Shown: positions 1-6,553 of the stretch, piece by piece
How the letters are laid out: each line of letters begins with the position of its first letter
Position numbering within the stretch: the stretch's first letter is position 1
Virus record (IMG/VR): IMGVR_UViG_3300009652_000304
DNA length: 6,553 nucleotides
Reading direction: 5' to 3' (one strand)
DNA from: a virus
The notes under the pieces: model-generated
What the model was told of the DNA's origin: nothing
Database searches by the model: none
Seen by the model: the letters and a program-made list of their open reading frames with translations, nothing else
Translations under genes and position numbers: made by a program

Positions 1-123
1 TCACCGGTATCTTTATCCACGTACCAATCCCAATCATCCTCACCTTCCTGTATTGTCGTTTCATCATCAATAGATTGGTTATCTGTCTCATTCATCCATC
101 TTTCCAGATCGTCAATCCATGAA
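1..123. repeat. Terminal overlap copy 1, identical to 6431-6553. This is a circularisation signature.
   Basis: Base-by-base comparison shows that tcaccggtatctttatccac...gtcaatccatgaa is identical at both window ends (123/123). Confidence 0.95.
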
Positions 124-998
124 TCAGGCCAGTCTATTTCAGGCACTGGGGGACAGGGGACTTTTACTTCCTGTTCCGGCGATAAAGCGGTGCCAAAGCC
201 CGCAGCATCTCCAACATAATTAAAATAAATTGTTTGACCTATTATACTACCCAACTCCCTAAAATCAATATTAGTGGTTTTTTCAGCAGTTACTATTTCA
301 CCATAATTCATCATTGTCTGATAAACCAAAGTAATAAAATTAGCACCAACATCAGTTATATTTGGTGGTGGACAGCTACTCGATGCACTATATAATGTCA
401 CTATATTTAAGTACCTATGCCAATAATGCGACTGTCCCCATGCACGAGTATTTCCTTCATAAATTAAATCAAAGTAATGTACATATCTAGGGATTGAAAC
501 CCCATTAACATTATAATATCCATCATGGACAATATCACGACATAACAGAACGGAACCATTACTAAGAGTTGCAACAATTTCTGCATCATTAATCACAACC
601 TGTATATTATCCGGATAAGTAATATTGCTAGGAATATCCACAGAACCATTAGCTACATAATTTTCACCAGAAACAAAATTATTCGCTAAATAATCTAAAA
701 TACTTTGAATAGTATTTGCATTAATAATAATTTTGCCAGTAATAACACCATATTGAACTGCCTTTCTCCATTGCTCACGATTATACGCTTGCTGTTTATT
801 CCAATAATCCTGAACAGCATATTGTAACGCCTCAGAGTCTGCAGCATATAATCCACAGGCAGTTAGACCGCCAGCAATTGCGTAATAAACACCCGGACCC
901 ATTAATACTGCAGCCGGATTTGCTTGCACTGGTTTAATGAAACTTAAAATATTAATTAACATTAATCCAATTATTAATATTGCAAACTTCTTTCGCAT
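1..998 (-). CDS. N-terminal part of a 554-aa putative adsorption / minor coat protein (gIII analogue). It continues across the circle junction into 6430..5764.
   Basis: The ATG is at 998-996, preceded by GAGAGGA about 10 nt upstream. I checked every in-frame triplet from 998 down to 3 and found no stop. The frame (998 mod 3 = 2) matches position 95, which is equivalent to the track Met at 6525. The N-terminus MRKKFAILIIGLMLINILSFIKPVQA/NPAAV looks like a Sec signal peptide. The gene sits directly after the coat gene and terminator, as gIII does in Ff. It is missing from the ORF track because it runs off the window edge. Confidence 0.8.
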   Translation of the reverse strand, partial: MRKKFAILIIGLMLINILSFIKPVQANPAAVLMGPGVYYAIAGGLTACGLYAADSEALQYAVQDYWNKQQAYNREQWRKAVQYGVITGKIIINANTIQSILDYLANNFVSGENYVANGSVDIPSNITYPDNIQVVINDAEIVATLSNGSVLLCRDIVHDGYYNVNGVSIPRYVHYFDLIYEGNTRAWGQSHYWHRYLNIVTLYSASSSCPPPNITDVGANFITLVYQTMMNYGEIVTAEKTTNIDFRELGSIIGQTIYFNYVGDAAGFGTALSPEQEVKVPCPPVPEIDWPDSWIDDLERWMNETDNQSIDDETTIQEGEDDWDWYVDKDTG

Positions 999-1072: not shown

Positions 1073-1103
1073 AGCCAGTCTGAAAATATATTTCAGACCG
1101 GCT
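1073..1103 (-). terminator. Intrinsic-terminator-like hairpin immediately downstream of the major coat gene.
   Basis: On the - strand, AGCCGGUCUGAAA / UUUCAGACUGGCU forms a 13-bp stem with one G-U pair and a 5-nt loop. It is followed by AACUAUUUUUAUUG. It begins 8 nt after the coat stop codon. Ff phages have a terminator at the same place, after gVIII. Confidence 0.65.
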
Positions 1104-1110
1104 TTTGCTT

Positions 1111-1275
1111 TTAACCTTTTGCAAGACTAGCAAACAGTCTTTTACCATAACGCCAAGCCAGGAAAATTGCCAATATTCCCAGTCCGTATGGAGCAACAGC
1201 CCCTAAAGTTGCAACAATATCACCCGAAATACTCTGTAATGCAGTTTGTACTGCTGTATTGACAGTTCCTTCCAT
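1111..1275 (-). CDS. Major coat protein (gVIII analogue), 54 aa, Pf3-like and without a cleavable leader.
   Basis: Hand translation gives MEGTVNTAVQTALQSISGDIVATLGAVAPYGLGILAIFLAWRYGKRLFASLAKG. It has a polar or acidic N-terminus, one hydrophobic helix and a basic C-terminus (R,K,R,K) suited to DNA contact. The RBS GGGGGTGA lies about 5 nt upstream of the ATG. The gene occupies the gVIII position and is followed by a terminator. Its architecture resembles my recollection of the Pf3 coat protein (MQSVITDVTGQLTAVQADITTIGGAIIVLAAVVLGIRWIKAQFF). Confidence 0.75.
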   Translation of the reverse strand: MEGTVNTAVQTALQSISGDIVATLGAVAPYGLGILAIFLAWRYGKRLFASLAKG

Positions 1276-1280
1276 CTTTT

Positions 1281-1442
1281 TCACCCCCTTGCAACTGTAG
1301 TGAATATTTTAACGACTGCCAAAATCATAAAGCCCATTAAAGCACATGACCCGACAATCAATATTCCCATAAATATAGCCTGCTGCCATATATCTATATT
1401 TAGTGTTATTAATTCGGCATAATTTTCAAAATCCATATACAT
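1281..1442 (-). CDS. Small single-TM protein, 53 aa (gVII/gIX-like minor virion protein by position).
   Basis: The sequence is MYMDFENYAELITLNIDIWQQAIFMGILIVGSCALMGFMILAVVKIFTTVARG. The ATG at 1442 lies 1 nt after the stop of the preceding small ORF, giving TAA-A-ATG coupling. The track's 89-aa version begins at a TTG (1550) with no SD, and its first 36 residues overlap the better-supported 57-aa ORF out of frame. Confidence 0.55.
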   Translation of the reverse strand: MYMDFENYAELITLNIDIWQQAIFMGILIVGSCALMGFMILAVVKIFTTVARG

Positions 1443-2117: not shown

Positions 2118-3239
2118 TTATGCAGTTATTTCTAATTGTTTTATTGCTTGTTGAATGTCTGTAAATATTCCTCTTATCTCATATTTTGATCCCGGCAGCG
2201 GTATAAATTCTTTAACTATAGCTTGTACGTATTTTTCCTCAGTAAAAACTAAACCACCTTTTGTACTTATACCCGCCGAAGAAAAATCTTTCATATATCT
2301 ATACCAAGTTGCTTTTGATACCTCAGCCTTAACAGTTTTTTCAGAATCAACTTGTATCCTCGTCCAAACCGAAAACAAATTACTTGCTTTTCTCCGAGAA
2401 TAAACTTCATTTAATCTTTTCTTTACATCTTCAACACTTCTTACTACCTTCATTTCATAAACACCCTCTTTAAATATTTTCGTTATTTCATTTTCATAAA
2501 CATGTATAAAATAATCATCATCTAAATCAATACAAATATTTGATACTCCATCATATTTCATTTTACGTTTTTTTACCTCGACTTCAAATCTAACAATTCT
2601 CAATGCTATATCTTTAAGTAAGTTTAAATTTTCTACCGTAAATCTTTTATCATCTTTCAATTTTCTAAGCCGGGGCATATCATGAACCTTAAACTCCGTA
2701 CCTTTATTATATGCCTTTACAGTTGTACTAGCACCTTTGATATAAATAGAATTTAACCCATAATTCATAACCTCCCTCCTCGGATAGTTAATTCCCCTCA
2801 AACTTTTAAAAAATTCGTCACATTCTAACTTTGAACCTAATCCAAATACATACGCTACATCAGCCCTCATTAATTCCCATTCCGACCAGTTAGGTAATTT
2901 TACACCTAAACGATAATTTACTAAAGATACTAGGTATCTGCAACAATCCTTTATATTTTCAGGCCCTCCAAAAACATTATGGCCTAATATAAACTTATGT
3001 ATAGATCCTGATAACGTTATTCTATTATCAGTATTAAATCTTATAGATAATCTATTATCATAAGAACCCGATAATTCCTGAGTAGTTATCTGCCATAGAA
3101 CTTCTCCCGTCTCACAATCTATTTGCTCAGTTCGTTTACTTAAATTTAACAAATTTATATATTCATTGTATGGTATCTGTGGACTTCTAATCGATAATGT
3201 ATCGTATATTTTAATCGACCCCTCTATACCTATTCTCAA
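2118..3239 (-). CDS. Rolling-circle replication initiation protein, Ff gpII family, 373 aa.
   Basis: Co-linear motif matches to M13 gpII, as I recall its sequence: YDTLSIRSP ~ IDMLVLRLP; ILGHNVFG ~ LQGHNVFG; MRADVAYVF ~ SRIDATFSA; IVRFEVEVKKR ~ LVRFEARIKTR; TWYRYMKDFSSAGI ~ SFWRYVSALVECGI. The start is TTG at 3239. An in-frame stop at 3263-3261 leaves no upstream ATG, and GAAGG lies about 8 nt upstream. Confidence 0.85.
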   Translation of the reverse strand: MRIGIEGSIKIYDTLSIRSPQIPYNEYINLLNLSKRTEQIDCETGEVLWQITTQELSGSYDNRLSIRFNTDNRITLSGSIHKFILGHNVFGGPENIKDCCRYLVSLVNYRLGVKLPNWSEWELMRADVAYVFGLGSKLECDEFFKSLRGINYPRREVMNYGLNSIYIKGASTTVKAYNKGTEFKVHDMPRLRKLKDDKRFTVENLNLLKDIALRIVRFEVEVKKRKMKYDGVSNICIDLDDDYFIHVYENEITKIFKEGVYEMKVVRSVEDVKKRLNEVYSRRKASNLFSVWTRIQVDSEKTVKAEVSKATWYRYMKDFSSAGISTKGGLVFTEEKYVQAIVKEFIPLPGSKYEIRGIFTDIQQAIKQLEITA

Positions 3240-3828: not shown

Positions 3829-4167
3829 CTAATTGTCCAATATGCTCAACTGAGTCATATCTAAACCTTTGGGGTATTGCTTTCTGCAAAAATCATTTTT
3901 TAACTGCCCATGAAACTCCGTGCTCATACTGTTAGAGGTTAAAAGCTTTTTACTATATTTTAAGCAATTATCCCCTACGCAATAAGGACACCAGTTATCG
4001 AAGCTTGGGTTGCAAAATCTGCCTGATGGAATATTTGTTTTTACAAGTGGATCTTTTCCGTACCAATTTACTTCTTTCCATTCTTTCCATTCCTGTTGTT
4101 CTAATAAAACCAATACAGCCTTTGTTATTTCTTGGTCAGATTTATACGAAAAAGCCAATCCCTTCAT
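3829..4167 (-). CDS. Hypothetical Cys-rich protein, 112 aa, with a C-x7-C-P-Y-C-x4-C cluster.
   Basis: This is a track ORF with a GGAGA RBS about 8 nt upstream of the ATG at 4167. Cys52, Cys60, Cys63 and Cys68 form FCNPSFDNWCPYCVGDNC. I recognise no family. Confidence 0.7.
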   Translation of the reverse strand: MKGLAFSYKSDQEITKAVLVLLEQQEWKEWKEVNWYGKDPLVKTNIPSGRFCNPSFDNWCPYCVGDNCLKYSKKLLTSNSMSTEFHGQLKNDFCRKQYPKGLDMTQLSILDN

Positions 4168-4603: not shown

Positions 4604-4657
4604 AGCAGGTTTTTAGTGGGACCCCCCCCACGGGGGCCCCCCCCACAAAAACCTGCT
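4604..4657. other. Large compound hairpin with C8 / G5 / C8 homopolymer runs, overlapping the stop codon of the Zot-like gene. Candidate terminator, packaging signal or origin structure.
   Basis: agcaggttttt (4604-4614) pairs with aaaaacctgct (4647-4657), giving 11 bp. gtggg (4616-4620) pairs with cccac (4642-4646). The G5 run (4632-4636) can pair with part of the C8 run (4622-4629). On the - strand the hairpin is followed by UUUAUUAAUUAUUAAU. Confidence 0.6.
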
Positions 4658-5405
4658 AATCAAAAATATTATTTTTTTGTTCCCGGAATATAGCTCTGCA
4701 ATCTGTTAAATTATCATCAAGACTTATATCGTAACCGTCAAATAGTTTCATACTGTCATATCGGTTTGCTATTGATTTTCTGAATATCATAAATTCCACA
4801 TCAGTCTTAAATGATAACCCATAATACTTTTCTATTATTACAAATATCTTAAAGGGTAATAATCTAAACCACCAATACATATTAGATGCTTTGCGATGTA
4901 CGTACTCTTTTTCTATCATGTTCCGTATTTGCCGATCTAACATTCTGTCTGACTGGGCTATCAATATGAAATCATATCCAAATTTTCTGTGCTGACTGAA
5001 AAATTTTACCCACTGCTGCCGGTCCTTTTTACCATAATTTTTCACGCTTACAGATTGATCGTCATCACTGTTAAAAAATTCTTCCAGTGCTTTTTTTTCT
5101 TCTTTATCGGTTCGGTCATTAAAACGAACTCCTGCCTCATCTATTACAACTAAACATTGACTTTCTCTTTTGTTTTTCAAATAACCTCTCATCTTCGCAA
5201 ATCTTGCTAAATTTAGAACATTTATATATTCTTCAGAAACATAAAAAAATCTTTCTTCATATCCTTTTCTTTTTTCCCTTTTTGTAAATTTTATTGGATA
5301 ATTGCTAATCACATCACGCCCGGCCCACAAATTTAATAATATTTTCCGGGTCACATTTAAAGATTTACCTGATCCCGGAGTACCGGAATATAAATCAACA
5401 CTCAC
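4656..5405 (-). CDS. Zot / gpI-family phage assembly ATPase, 249 aa.
   Basis: Walker A GTPGSGKS is at residues 8-15, and Walker B-like LVVIDEAG is at residues 85-92. The N-terminal layout is typical of Zot-domain proteins. The start is GTG at 5405, immediately after the TAA of the upstream gene, with AAGGGG 8 nt upstream. The gene occupies the gI position. Confidence 0.9.
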   Translation of the reverse strand: MSVDLYSGTPGSGKSLNVTRKILLNLWAGRDVISNYPIKFTKREKRKGYEERFFYVSEEYINVLNLARFAKMRGYLKNKRESQCLVVIDEAGVRFNDRTDKEEKKALEEFFNSDDDQSVSVKNYGKKDRQQWVKFFSQHRKFGYDFILIAQSDRMLDRQIRNMIEKEYVHRKASNMYWWFRLLPFKIFVIIEKYYGLSFKTDVEFMIFRKSIANRYDSMKLFDGYDISLDDNLTDCRAIFREQKNNIFD

Positions 5406-5657
5406 TTAATCAACCCCTTTTACCCAGCGCAACGGAATTCTTAAAACATAATAAATAGCAACCGCTACAAGGAATAATTCCAAGTGAGCAATAATTCCGG
5501 CAACTGGAATAATATAATTGATATATTCTATCCATGTATTTTCAAGTTCGAGTACATATATAAATGGTGAGTCAGGAAGTAATGAAAACAAAACTGTTAA
5601 TACTTCCCCGGCTGCAGCTATAACTTTATTTATTAGAGATATTATTGCTATCTGCAT
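5406..5657 (-). CDS. Hydrophobic minor coat / assembly protein (gVI analogue by position), 83 aa from the ATG at 5657.
   Basis: The track gives 5406..5663 from a TTG. I prefer the ATG at 5657 because GGAGG lies 6 nt upstream of it. The protein is dominated by hydrophobic stretches (IAIISLINKVIAAAG, IIPVAGIIAHLELFLVAVAIYYVL). It lies between the gIII-like and gI-like genes, as gVI does in Ff. Confidence 0.6.
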   Translation of the reverse strand: MQIAIISLINKVIAAAGEVLTVLFSLLPDSPFIYVLELENTWIEYINYIIPVAGIIAHLELFLVAVAIYYVLRIPLRWVKGVD

Positions 5658-5763
5658 AAACAACCTCCATTAAATTTTCTCGTACTGTCATACAACGTTT
5701 ACAAACTCTATCTTTATGGTAATTTAACATACCACAAAAAATACAAATCCAAGTTTTTAGCAT
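5626..5763 (-). CDS. 45-aa zinc-ribbon micro-protein with a RanBP2-type Cys4 pattern.
   Basis: Hand translation gives MLKTWICIFCGMLNYHKDRVCKRCMTVRENLMEVVYADSNNISNK. The ATG at 5763 directly abuts the TAA of the gIII-like gene, and a strong GGGAGGTGG lies about 7 nt upstream. The stop is TAA at 5628-5626, overlapping the start of the gVI-like gene by 32 nt. The segment W-x-C-x2-C-x3-N-x6-C-x2-C is present exactly. Confidence 0.5.
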   Translation of the reverse strand: MLKTWICIFCGMLNYHKDRVCKRCMTVRENLMEVVYADSNNISNK

Positions 5764-6553
5764 TTATACACCACCTCCCATTAATCTTCTGGTAGCTAAT
5801 ATTAGCCCAACATCAAATATAAGTAATTCAATTTTTTTCACAATGTTACGAATAGCGTCAAACATTCCCAAATCAATATTGAAAACGAAATCAGCTAATT
5901 TAGTATCTATATTAATATCTAATTTGCCATCCCAAGAGCCACCGTCTAACTGCTTAAAACTATTATATAAATCCCAAGGGAGACTAAACGGGAATTTACG
6001 TGTTATGGTACTAGCACCCTTTTTTAATGGCTGCCAGTCAATGCCCGTATCGTCTGTTGGAGGGTTAGTTGTAACTGTCGTAGGAGGGCCAGTTGTCACC
6101 GTTACTACAGGTGGCCCCAATGGTAGACCATCCGGACCTAAAGTTGTTTCTGTTGTTGTTGTTGTTGTTGTTGTTGTTTCTTTCCATTTTTTCGTTATAG
6201 GATCATAAAATTTTCTTGTTGTATCAGAACGTTCTATTGTTTTTTCAGTCGTTGTACCGTCTGGATTATTTATTATTTCGGTTTCCGGAGGATAATCAAT
6301 TGTTGTTTCATCCGGATTATTTATATCCGGTAAATCATCAGGCACATTAGGCTCTGGAACCGGTACCGGAAAACCTATTTTCCTATCATCATCATGACGT
6401 GGACCTTCACCTTTTCTACGCTTGTATATTTCACCGGTATCTTTATCCACGTACCAATCCCAATCATCCTCACCTTCCTGTATTGTCGTTTCATCATCAA
6501 TAGATTGGTTATCTGTCTCATTCATCCATCTTTCCAGATCGTCAATCCATGAA
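5764..6553 (-). CDS. C-terminal part of the same 554-aa adsorption-like protein. Positions 6431-6553 duplicate 1-123, and the track Met at 6525 is internal.
   Basis: The frame stays open to the window end. The protein has an acidic, Trp-rich segment (EGEDDWDWYVDKD). It then has a Pro/Thr-rich linker with INNPDETT / INNPDGTT repeats and a T9 run. The C-terminal hydrophobic tail IELLIFDVGLILATRRLMGGGV could be a membrane anchor. The stop is TAA at 5766-5764. Confidence 0.8.
   Translation of the reverse strand, partial: SWIDDLERWMNETDNQSIDDETTIQEGEDDWDWYVDKDTGEIYKRRKGEGPRHDDDRKIGFPVPVPEPNVPDDLPDINNPDETTIDYPPETEIINNPDGTTTEKTIERSDTTRKFYDPITKKWKETTTTTTTTTETTLGPDGLPLGPPVVTVTTGPPTTVTTNPPTDDTGIDWQPLKKGASTITRKFPFSLPWDLYNSFKQLDGGSWDGKLDINIDTKLADFVFNIDLGMFDAIRNIVKKIELLIFDVGLILATRRLMGGGV
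6151..6177 (-). repeat. Perfect trinucleotide microsatellite: (tgt)9 on the + strand, (ACA)9 on the coding strand, encoding Thr9.
   Basis: There are nine uninterrupted tgt units at 6151-6177, lying inside the linker of the adsorption-like protein (KETTTTTTTTTETT). Confidence 0.95.
6431..6553. repeat. Terminal overlap copy 2, identical to 1-123.
   Basis: Same comparison as copy 1. An ORF runs continuously and in frame across the junction, which supports circular continuity rather than two independent repeats. Confidence 0.95.

Follow-up and report, generated by a model that had tools for sequence, protein, structure and literature searches.

A putative RanBP2-like zinc-ribbon gene at the gIII–gVI junction of an uncultivated Bacillota-type inovirus

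Introduction

Is the 45-codon reading frame that lies between the adsorption gene and the next assembly gene of this filamentous phage a gene, and what would a zinc finger be doing at such a position? Ff phages are not known to carry any gene at the gIII–gVI boundary, and the RanBP2-like zinc ribbon is regarded as an essentially eukaryotic module. An initial annotation had described the frame, termed zf here, and had suggested an assembly factor or a regulator as its product. Its start signals, family, distribution, variation, origin and possible function are considered below.

Genomic context and start signals

The window (the whole stretch of 6553 nt that was analysed) is a circle in permuted form that carries a terminal repeat of 123 nt; the gIII-like gene, which encodes 554 amino acids in the circular genome, is split in the window for this reason. 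The minus strand carries zf and all other genes, among them the following features.

5764..6553, minus strand: gIII-like adsorption gene, 3' part (the 5' part is window 1–998, minus strand)
5771..5779, minus strand: Shine–Dalgarno-like GGGAGGTGG for zf, within the 3' end of the gIII-like gene
5626..5763, minus strand: zf, 45 codons by translation (ATG 5763–5761, TAA 5628–5626)
5406..5657, minus strand: gVI-like gene, 83 amino acids, hydrophobic (ATG 5657, Shine–Dalgarno GGAGG 5668–5664 inside zf)
4656..5405, minus strand: Zot/pI-like assembly ATPase, the next operon gene (PF05707, E = 1e-17)

The gIII-like gene was assigned by synteny only; its product carries a signal peptide, linkers rich in T/P and an anchor at the C-terminus, and gave no Pfam or PHROG match. 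Homology between this gVI-like gene and those of zf-less relatives starts at its first residues.

Translation of 5763..5626 on the minus strand gives a product of 45 amino acids, MLKTWICIFCGMLNYHKDRVCKRCMTVRENLMEVVYADSNNISNK, within which the stretch MLKTWICIFCGMLNYHK is found. The TAA of the gIII-like gene (5766–5764) abuts the zf ATG (5763–5761) with zero spacer, and the GGAGG core of GGGAGGTGG (5779–5771) sits 10 nt ahead of this ATG. The strong ribosome-binding site and the ATG directly after the TAA that the initial annotation had described were thus found, on the minus strand, and its 45-codon frame overlapping the downstream gene by 32 nt was confirmed, with public gene calls agreeing on the coordinates. 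Its description of the frame as unannotated holds in part only: automatic gene callers in public assemblies do call zf, on every public contig that carries it, and the JGI label reads 'hypothetical protein'. The gVI-like GGAGG (5668–5664) stands 6 nt before the ATG at 5657. A plus-strand ORF across the same region (5518–5673, 51 amino acids) was dismissed because all genes and the synteny are on the minus strand. The frame is a genuine ORF inside the gIII-gVI-gI operon with the anatomy of a translated gene, coupled by prediction to its neighbours, and is most likely a real gene.

Zinc-ribbon pattern, family and predicted structure

5692..5751, minus strand: zinc-ribbon core, codons 5–24, W-x-C-x2-C-x3-N-x6-C-x2-C (translation, Pfam PF00641)

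The exact RanBP2-type pattern that had been claimed is present in the peptide with all six signature residues (W5-x-C7-x2-C10-x3-N14-x6-C21-x2-C24), giving a Cys4 zinc ribbon with RanBP2-like spacing; the consensus W-x-C-x(2,4)-C-x(3)-N-x(6)-C-x(2)-C is presumably PROSITE PS01358, the RanBP2-type zinc finger. The pattern arose in none of 3000 shuffles of the window. As a regular expression it matched zf alone in the window and, among 17,939 ORFs from 181 loci, the zf-bearing phage clade alone. The best Pfam match was Zn_ribbon_RanBP (PF00641; E = 5e-5), with zf residues 4–29 aligned to profile positions 4–29 of 30; the family assignment thus holds as the best-scoring one, but the score of 22.9 bits falls short of the gathering threshold of 27 bits, and precomputed Pfam marks for this family on zf are 'weak' or 'faint'.

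Identity to RanBP2-type repeats is 44% across 27 amino acids, and zf is 33–50% identical to all five repeats of P0136, a RanBP2-type protein. An exhaustive HMMER search of 1.84 billion representatives retrieved RanBP2-repeat proteins: among the 150 matches listed (E to 2e-5), those beyond zf's own cluster were only multi-repeat RanBP2-type proteins of eukaryote-like look, and no other small single-domain relative was present. Sequence matches in the PDB were the fingers of RanBP2, MDM2, RBM10, Nup153 and RBM5, all of the RanBP2 type. A zinc ribbon of this type is built of two β-hairpin knuckles with four Cys around a single Zn. The AF2 model of zf is of moderate confidence (mean pLDDT 70.6; ∼77 for residues 1–30) and shows two short β pairs, with strands at residues 5–6 and 13–14. 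Foldseek listed many RanBP2/NZF fingers in the PDB, none of them significant (best E = 2.2), together with the ClpX ZBD (TM 0.53) and YacG, both likewise non-significant. The protein has no hydrophobic segment and its ribbon is net basic (K3, K17, R19, K22, R23, R28).

Ubiquitin-binding NZF fingers carry a T-F dipeptide directly after the second Cys and a hydrophobic residue near the C-terminus, and the Ran-binding motif of Nup153/RanBP2 is 'LV'. Both 'TF' and 'LV' are missing from zf, in which G11-M12 follows C10; we know of no ubiquitin system in bacteria. Single-stranded RNA-binding fingers of the ZRANB2, FUS, EWS and RBM5/10 class have a stacking aromatic residue after the conserved Asn, R19-R20 and N14/N24, and no RNA binding is reported for a finger in which K and S occupy the R19 and R20 positions (PMC6384913). 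By pattern alignment the equivalents in zf are Y15 (F, E or N elsewhere), K17-D18, M12 and K22, which do not make up this signature. The resemblance to RanBP2 therefore stands for the pattern and the best Pfam family but does not extend to the RNA-, ubiquitin- and Ran-binding signatures. A RanBP2/NZF-like zinc ribbon, a putative zinc binder, is in part shown by these comparisons, and the similarity may reflect homology or convergence.

Distribution among related phages

No zf was present in loci L006, L008, L009, L010, L012 and L013, where gIII and gVI overlap via TAATG. The sister junction (L006, L008, L009 and L012/L013, with Zot proteins of 63–72% identity by alignment) reads gIII ...GTGTAATG... 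gVI and has no intervening ORF. The closest relatives without zf have homologous gIII C-termini, gVI and Zot.

In ∼160 related Bacillota inovirus loci (17,939 ORFs from 181 loci searched) no zf homologue was detected beyond its own clade. Among 50,697 phage records, megablast with the window found no match, and tblastn with the zf peptide gave chance matches only (E = 8). A word-indexed protein search with the peptide returned its own 90% cluster only, and PHROGs, NCBIfam and PADLOC gave no meaningful match. Pattern scans of IMG/VR and of JGI metagenome contigs with the back-translated peptide found nothing, and neither did a Zot-based scan of IMG/VR for close relatives. The Zot scan of metagenome contigs yielded one locus (64% identical), in which DNA comparison revealed nothing matching the zf region. 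Among genomes, prophage-like Zot genes come no nearer than 44–51% identity (Desulfosporosinus, Pelotomaculum, Syntrophomonadaceae and other Clostridia). A literature search for zinc ribbons in inoviruses and RanBP2 fingers in phages retrieved nothing relevant.

An ORF is thus kept at this position within the clade of six haplotypes described below but not in the more distant relatives examined, in which gIII and gVI are joined directly. The gene is confined to one narrow lineage of low-GC (33.7%), uncultivated Bacillota-type inoviruses. Its absence from all more distant relatives examined points to a recent lineage-specific insertion and, judged from these sequences, zf is not a conserved part or core gene of the morphogenesis block.

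Variation and selection within the clade

5719..5721, minus strand: codon 15 (Tyr here), hypervariable Y/F/E/N (codons TAC, TTC, GAA, AAT, TAT)

Six protein haplotypes from independent metagenomes or samples were compared. Stops, frameshifts and variation ignoring the frame or the Cys positions were sought in them and none were found: the frame is open in all six, and W5, C7, C10, N14, C21 and C24 are kept throughout. Residues 1–14 and 17–28 are invariant, so that the zinc-ribbon core varies at codons 15 and 16 only. The 26 invariant core codons contain four variable nucleotides, all four synonymous and none non-synonymous, and the non-synonymous changes cluster at a few codons outside this core. 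In codons 1–35, ∼6 synonymous and 8 non-synonymous events were counted where 18% synonymous would be expected (binomial p = 0.027; 0.012 leaving out codon 15), these selection tests resting on ∼14 substitutions. Nei–Gojobori dN/dS is 0.21 for zf, compared with 0.14 in the C-terminal part of gIII and 0.09 in gVI. Variable sites per codon position in zf number 3/3/6, a third-position bias that is not strong. With a kept frame, a synonymous excess and invariant key residues, zf bears the marks of purifying selection as far as these sequences go.

The haplotypes are only ∼86–93% identical in DNA and form a shallow clade, so the conservation test is of limited power and an open 45-codon ORF is weak evidence by itself. 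Synonymous divergence of zf is half that of its flanks, and nucleotide diversity across the module is lowest in the ORF. This low diversity is compatible with a recent sweep, and constraint at the RNA or DNA level could contribute to the conservation.

Among 533 aligned codons none varies more than codon 15, and no other has four amino-acid states. The counterpart of residue 15 in ZRANB2 ZnF2 is, by alignment, the base-stacking Trp, and residue 15 is probably carried by the binding face of the protein. An 11-bp hairpin in the coding core, which appeared in the fold of a 201-nt region, was rejected because its 3' arm consists of the hypervariable codons 15–16; the fold of the entire 201-nt region is not unusual (z = −1.21).

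Origin at the junction and predicted coupling

5766..5794, minus strand: direct repeat copy 1, 3' end of gIII, coding for ..TRRLMGGGV* (repeat comparison)
5656..5684, minus strand: direct repeat copy 2, zf codons 27–36 (..VRENLMEVVY) with the Shine–Dalgarno sequence and start of gVI (repeat comparison)

The two copies of this imperfect repeat (∼30 nt) are 76–80% identical at a spacing of 110 nt, a score reached in three of 5000 shuffles. They bracket ∼80 nt that code for the zinc ribbon alone, which suggests the insertion of a cassette with duplication of the junction; part of the repeat similarity could come from both copies being Shine–Dalgarno/start contexts. On this reading, ∼80 nt for a minimal Cys4 zinc ribbon (residues 1–26) would have entered exactly at the ancestral TAATG overlap of gIII stop and gVI start, and ∼30 nt of the junction would have been duplicated. 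Copy 1 would remain the end of gIII, with its Shine–Dalgarno sequence now used by zf, and copy 2 would provide gVI with a Shine–Dalgarno sequence and start context. The C-terminal tail of zf (residues 27–45) would then be a by-product, made up of a duplicated gIII tail followed by out-of-frame gVI codons.

5628..5675, minus strand: predicted RNA hairpin pairing the gVI Shine–Dalgarno sequence and AUG, wholly inside zf
1073..1103, minus strand: hairpin resembling a terminator, behind the major-coat gene and immediately before gIII

The first of these hairpins has a predicted ΔG of −11.6 kcal/mol (z = −3.05; 0 of 200 shuffles). Sequestration of the Shine–Dalgarno sequence is predicted in five of the six haplotypes, with z from −0.9 to −3.1 and some of the hairpins weaker; the hairpin is broken in L015 with no compensation. 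The second is predicted to mark the start of a gIII-zf-gVI-gI transcription block, and no terminator was found within that block. The predicted coupling anatomy consists of the TAA–ATG adjacency, the Shine–Dalgarno sequences, the 32-nt overlap and the hairpin over the gVI Shine–Dalgarno sequence and AUG. Ribosomes ending gIII at the TAA would reinitiate at the adjoining zf ATG, and their translation of zf would pass through the hairpin that hides the gVI start signals. This passage would restore the coupling from gIII to gVI that the insertion would otherwise have broken.

Discussion

The reading considered probable is that zf is a real, recently acquired gene, inserted at the junction, coupled to its neighbours and encoding an accessory binding module. 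As to what the protein does, which is the least certain step, the best guess is a cytoplasmic one-domain binding module that would be accessory rather than core to assembly; its ligand would probably be a host or competitor protein or a nucleic acid. The absence of zf in sister phages, the four states of codon 15 and the diversity minimum point toward such an accessory, conflict-like role.

The finger shares its exact pattern and its ∼30-residue module with RanBP2-type/NZF fingers, which occur as repeats in large, mostly eukaryotic proteins, whereas zf is a free-standing phage protein of 45 amino acids in which N14, R20 and N24 of ZRANB2 are replaced by M12, D18 and K22. One-domain zinc-finger micro-proteins are known from prokaryotes, for example the C(P)XCG proteins of Haloferax volcanii (PMC6562870, PMC11241148). 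These micro-proteins, like zf, are of at most 70 amino acids, hardly more than one Cys4 unit and lineage-restricted; unlike the Haloferax proteins, zf lacks C(P)XCG knuckles, is phage-encoded and lies inside a morphogenesis operon with predicted coupling. The block itself resembles that of Ff-type phages (M13/fd/f1) in its adsorption protein, small hydrophobic pVI-like protein and Zot/pI ATPase and in the terminator after the major coat gene, but zf is an extra gene, missing also from the nearest relatives of this phage. It resembles morons in being found in one lineage only, absent from the same site in syntenic relatives, sharply bounded and dispensable for the conserved module. Classical morons have their own promoter and terminator, whereas zf amounts to ∼80 nt of new sequence with predicted translational coupling.

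A known parallel to a regulatory role is Com of phage Mu, a 62-residue CCCC zinc finger that activates translation of mom (PMC6483171). A ribbon of this kind might bind its own mRNA near the gVI hairpin or at GGAGG-type Shine–Dalgarno sequences and so tune gVI and gI in trans, which is considered improbable here. Like Com, zf is a small phage protein that begins with a Cys4 finger and ends in an unstructured tail, and it shares its operon with a gene whose start is buried in a hairpin, by prediction in the case of zf (PMC6483171); certain RanBP2-type fingers bind GGU, GGA or GGAGGA in single-stranded RNA (PMC6384913), and the zf ribbon is basic. The two proteins nevertheless have no detectable sequence relationship and differ in the spacing of their Cys pairs, and a Pfam search with zf at E ≤ 1 brought up no model of the Com family, while PHROG gave no match at E ≤ 0.1. 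The RNA-critical R19 and R20 of ZRANB2 are K17 and D18 in zf, and the stacking aromatic residue is E or N in two haplotypes; moreover, ribosome passage through zf would suffice to open the hairpin with no factor in trans, and sister phages manage without one. Improbable too is a core cofactor required for virion morphogenesis, with the packaging signal or the cytoplasmic side of the pI/Zot machine as its site of action. The embedding of zf in the gIII-gVI-gI block with predicted coupling, its staying with the block although replication and regulation modules differ between genomes, and the recurrence of non-homologous small Cys4 ORFs beside Zot in other Bacillota inoviruses (for example L063, L094 and L095) would fit such a role. 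The initial suggestion of an assembly factor is nonetheless weakened by the evidence for a recent lineage-specific insertion: the closest relatives without zf assemble without it, homologues are wanting outside the clade in the 181 loci and small ones among the 150 HMMER matches listed, and a radically hypervariable surface residue would be unusual for a housekeeping interface.

A functionless peptide, left by rearrangement of the junction and kept as a coupling leader or in a clade too young for decay, is judged quite improbable. The clade is indeed shallow, the low synonymous divergence points to constraint on the nucleotides or to a recent origin, the tail can be seen to be a by-product and the hairpin and coupling need no specific peptide. 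Against this, the six-residue signature is not explained by chance given the shuffles and the Pfam E-value, the substitutions in the 26-codon core are all synonymous while non-synonymous ones gather at a few codons elsewhere, and a mere leader could be far shorter. Highly improbable is a fusion product, made by readthrough of the gIII TAA, which would attach the ribbon to the cytoplasmic tail of pIII, or by a +1 shift in the 32-nt overlap, which would attach it to the N-terminus of pVI. The ATG of zf directly follows the TAA in the frame of gIII, with gVI shifted by +1 against zf; however, no slippery motif was seen in the overlap, the strong Shine–Dalgarno sequence and ATG favour independent initiation and an in-frame arrangement has a prior of one in three. 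TAA is, besides, the most efficient bacterial stop codon.

A bolder version of the capture of a RanBP2-like ribbon seems unlikely. The phage would hold it in minimal form as a free, rapidly evolving 5-kDa weapon (for counter-defence or superinfection, with residue 15 as a ligand contact under diversifying selection) or as a Com-like binder of GG-rich Shine–Dalgarno sequences that controls translation of the assembly genes. Were either case true, phage micro-proteins would gain a new functional class, and prokaryotes a natural RanBP2 scaffold with one finger.

If the accessory module of the preferred reading is made and binds zinc, zf would be a clean natural case of gene gain by a phage, in which ∼80 nt for a bare domain entered a stop/start junction and, because the junction was duplicated, the downstream gene retained its ribosome-binding site. 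Its practical value is modest pending a partner or phenotype; the single hypervariable surface residue offers an obvious experimental handle. The few RanBP2-like fingers outside eukaryotes would be joined by another one, and Gram-positive-type inoviruses, with accessory genes that have hardly been explored, would gain a micro-protein in their assembly operon.

Genome organization

The window corresponded to a circular genome of ~6,430 nt (GC 33.7%) in permuted form, with an exact 123-nt terminal direct repeat (window 1-123 = 6431-6553). Its assembly cut point fell within the gIII-like gene, the 5' part of which occupied 998..1 (-). Every recognisable gene was carried on the minus strand and the genome is that of an inovirus. 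The gIII and gVI labels were assigned from synteny and protein character, without family matches.

Features of the window, in order along the minus strand
3239..2118 (-), Rep (Phage_CRI), first in order
after Rep (-), 133-aa protein
(-), three small hydrophobic proteins including a coat-like 57-aa protein (1284..1111)
1103..1073 (-), terminator-like hairpin after the coat-like gene
start 998, across the window ends, end 5764 (-), gIII-like protein, 554 aa (synteny and protein character)
5763..5626 (-), zf, 45-codon ORF
5657..5406 (-), gVI-like hydrophobic protein, 83 aa (synteny and protein character)
5405..4656 (-), Zot/pI (PF05707, E = 1e-17)
after Zot/pI (-), two small ORFs

The gIII-like protein comprised a signal peptide, T/P-rich linkers and a C-terminal anchor, and the gVI-like protein a hydrophobic segment. 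Among otherwise ~90%-identical genomes (window 1-998 and 5764-6553 (-); related loci L001, L015, L017 and L018) the length of the gIII-like protein ranged from 512 to 558 aa; its N- and C-terminal parts aligned between these genomes and its central part did not, a pattern suggestive of exchanged domains in this adsorption protein. The interval from Zot to Rep included a 112-aa ORF (window 3829-4167 (-)) that contained a Cys cluster (CNPSFDNWCPYCVGDNC) and gave no family match in Pfam, PHROGs, NCBIfam or PADLOC. The Zot-Rep interval is a swappable module, because different ORFs replace it in L015-L017 (129, 78 and 57 aa in L015/L016). A repressor-like gene (HTH_3/HTH_19, 61-62 aa) lay on the opposite strand beside Rep in some clade members and some relatives (L017:2137-2322(-), L018:1167-1352(-), L012:17-205(-)); no ORF of the window genome had an HTH_3/HTH_19 match. 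Zot relatives of the Bacillota-type group were also found on short contigs binned to unrelated phyla (L022, Muribaculaceae MAG; L030, Micrarchaeota MAG; L100, Treponema MAG; L101, Bacteroidales), which are probably mis-binned free phage contigs and uninformative on host.

Reading frame and motif

Every feature that the initial annotation had described for zf was present, on the minus strand. The TAA of the adsorption gene (5766-5764) abuts the zf ATG (5763-5761), which is preceded by the proposed ribosome-binding site, GGGAGGTGG, at 5779-5771. The gVI-like gene starts at an ATG at 5657, with a separate GGAGG (5668-5664) 6 nt ahead of it, so the two genes overlap by 32 nt as had been claimed; sequence reading and public gene calls concur on this. 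The peptide, MLKTWICIFCGMLNYHKDRVCKRCMTVRENLMEVVYADSNNISNK, fits the pattern W-x-C-x2-C-x3-N-x6-C-x2-C exactly. This pattern arose in none of 3000 window shuffles and, in the 17,939 ORFs from the 181 loci fetched, was confined to this phage clade. The suggested zf-RanBP family was indeed the best Pfam match (Zn_ribbon_RanBP, PF00641, E = 5e-5), at 22.9 bits against a gathering score of 27, and zf thus lies below formal membership.

Conservation and diversity

At least eight contigs, 6.5-6.6 kb long, carried the identical ORF, and the 90%-identity cluster of this ORF comprised six protein haplotypes from different samples. DNA was fetched for all six, the genomes being ~86-93% identical to the window. 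The frame was kept in 6/6 haplotypes, one stopping a codon early within the gVI overlap, and the predicted conservation of all four Cys, the Trp and the Asn was borne out: residues 1-14 and 17-28 were invariant, including W5, C7, C10, N14, C21 and C24. Within these 26 codons all four variable nucleotides were synonymous (L2 CTA/TTA, C7 TGT/TGC, G11 GGT/GGC, V27 GTA/GTT). Of the events in codons 1-35, which lie outside the overlap, ~6 were synonymous and 8 non-synonymous, where a synonymous share of 18% was expected (binomial p = 0.027; p = 0.012 without codon 15), a test limited by shallow divergence, with only 3/3/6 variable sites per codon position. By the Nei-Gojobori method, zf had a dN/dS of 0.21; the final 80 gIII codons had 0.14 and gVI 0.09. 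From these tests, together with the motif, the Shine-Dalgarno (SD) sequence and the tight operon fit, zf is very probably a real protein-coding gene.

In the 1.58-kb gIII-zf-gVI-Zot alignment zf was the minimum of nucleotide diversity (pi 0.034-0.059 versus ~0.10), and its synonymous sites were also low (pS 0.14 versus 0.29-0.32); either a recent cassette sweep or added RNA-level constraint would explain this. Inside this low-diversity stretch, codon 15 (window 5719-5721 (-)) occurred in five forms (TAC, TAT, TTC, GAA, AAT) encoding Y, F, E or N, the only codon with four amino-acid states among 533 aligned codons (gIII C-terminus-zf-gVI-Zot). In RanBP2 fingers this position is taken by the aromatic that contacts the ligand. 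The pattern is as expected for a contested binding surface and not for a housekeeping one but, with six haplotypes, is only a lead.

Distribution and insertion structure

Relatives of the Zot protein formed a graded series. In those with a 63-72% identical Zot (L006, L008, L009/L010, L012/L013) no ORF lay between gIII and gVI; the gIII-like 3' end read ...GGNGGTG..GTGTAATG, with the gVI ATG overlapping the TAA. Homology of their gIII C-termini (..ATRRLLGGAV*, ..TRRLMGGGV*) and gVI N-termini with the window counterparts was clear. The expectation that related inoviruses keep zf at this position therefore held only within the clade, the zf-less relatives joining gIII directly to gVI. When the peptide was run with phmmer against every ORF of 20 aa or longer from the 181 loci, including ~160 related Bacillota-type inovirus/prophage loci (GTDB genomes, IMG/VR), no match was obtained beyond the clade. 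Exhaustive HMMER searching across 1.84 billion representatives gave 253 matches; the best 150 of the 253, which reach E = 2e-5, were the ORF's own cluster and otherwise all multi-repeat, eukaryotic-looking RanBP2-type proteins (repeats of the form GDWxCPxCxxxNFARNxxCRRC), with no small single-domain relative among them. By this comparison zf appears to be a recent insertion, not a conserved component of the morphogenesis block.

An imperfect direct repeat of 29-30 nt (identity 76-80%, spacing 110 nt, score reached in 3/5000 shuffles) lay on both sides of the ribbon-coding core.

Copies of the direct repeat
5794..5766 (-), copy 1, gIII end, TACCAGAAGA-TTAATGGGAGGTGGTGTAT
5684..5656 (-), copy 2, 3' part of zf, bearing the gVI SD and start context, TACGAGAAAATTTAAT-GGAGGTTGTTTAT

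Copy 2 was similar to the ancestral junction of the zf-less relatives. Residues 27-36 of zf (VRENLMEVVY) echo the gIII tail (TRRLMGGGV) and residues 37-45 are out-of-frame gVI codons; the new sequence would therefore be ~80 nt, apparently encoding exactly the zinc ribbon (residues 1-26). Such an insertion fits the concentration of variation in the tail (positions 29, 30, 33, 42-45), the lower AF2 confidence there (pLDDT 53-60 versus ~77 for the ribbon) and the ribbon as the conserved unit. The ORF is thus constrained and lineage-specific, and was seemingly inserted exactly at the gIII/gVI junction with duplication of that junction.

Small Cys-rich ORFs were also seen in related loci. Three diverged Lachnospiraceae/Dorea-type inovirus prophages carried, between the gVI-like gene and Zot, a ~88-aa ORF (MWFD[DE]N..C.TC[KR]YGDKE...HC..C; L063:1993-2259, L094:4838-5104, L095:4829-5092 (+)) that was non-homologous to zf, overlapped the Zot start by ~115 nt and had no above-threshold Pfam family. 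This gene block of Bacillota inoviruses may recurrently acquire small zinc-ribbon ORFs as additions. Other unrelated CxxC...CxxC ORFs of 27-90 aa lay mostly outside the morphogenesis block, with sub-threshold Pfam matches (TFIIB-type ribbon, 1.5e-4; ClpX C4 finger, 1e-3).

Other CxxC...CxxC ORFs in related inovirus loci
L025:632-715
L107:676-768
L121:4199-4336
L008:6568-6711(-)
L026:5902-6162
L027:9233-9499
L117:3644-3916
L172-L174 ~4897-4991

Expression

No terminator was found inside the gIII-zf-gVI-gI block, and the strong SD and TAA-ATG adjacency would suit termination-reinitiation at zf. A hairpin (5675..5628) lying wholly inside the zf ORF pairs the gVI SD and AUG (predicted dG -11.6 kcal/mol; z = -3.05, 0/200 shuffles). 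It was predicted in 5/6 haplotypes, more weakly in some (z -0.9 to -3.1), and was lost without compensation in L015, a clade genome. Ribosomes translating zf would open this hairpin, so that the insertion would have kept the gIII-to-gVI coupling of the ancestral TAATG; expression of zf is probably coupled to that of its neighbours.

Fold and ligand signatures

The peptide has no hydrophobic segment and should therefore be cytoplasmic. Its ribbon is basic (K3, K17, R19, K22, R23, R28 versus D18). PDB sequence matches were weak, those to zinc fingers being nearly all RanBP2-type (9hcj, a RanBP2-type ZnF protein; MDM2, 2c6a; RBM10, 2mxv; Nup153; RBM5), and BLASTP gave 44% identity over 27 residues with one repeat of P0136, a protein with RanBP2-type repeats. 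Foldseek gave nothing significant, its list holding many RanBP2/NZF fingers, the ClpX ZBD and YacG. Taken together, the predicted product is a Cys4 ribbon and a RanBP2-like fold class is supported at the level of sequence. NZF fingers carry a 'TF' motif and Ran-binding fingers an 'LV' motif, where zf has G11-M12. In ZRANB2 ZnF2, in the residue numbering of PMC6384913, W17 stacks on a base, R19 and R20 are critical arginines, and N14 and N24 contact RNA; the zf equivalents are Y15, K17 and D18, and M12 and K22, respectively. The RNA-binding signature is therefore absent, and zf matches no known ligand signature.

Interpretation

If zf is a real gene, our committed but tentative guess is that it encodes a small binding module, accessory in role, which would target a host or competitor macromolecule via the residue-15 face. 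Among phages, Mu Com is the closest analogue in mechanism, and zf parallels its architecture (PMC6483171); zf is nevertheless unlikely to be a Com-like regulator of gVI and gI translation, as no sequence relationship to Com was detected and zf lacks the RNA-contact residues. A core assembly cofactor is doubtful to a like degree, since sister phages have no zf.

That the ORF is a functionless by-product or a mere coupling leader seems improbable in view of the zinc-finger motif and the solely synonymous changes of its core. Synthesis of the ribbon as fusion products is highly improbable; zf shares its reading frame with gIII, gVI is offset from zf by +1, and the sequence gave no sign of readthrough or frameshift fusions.

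The preferred reading thus remains a binding module, the role of which is probably accessory. The nearest known kinds are RanBP2/NZF zinc ribbons and prokaryotic one-domain zinc-finger micro-proteins (PMC6562870, PMC11241148). No literature linking inoviruses with zinc ribbons was found. To our knowledge, Ff phages have nothing at the gIII/gVI site. The zf product would be a small accessory zinc-ribbon protein, encoded at an unusual site that bears a clear insertion scar.
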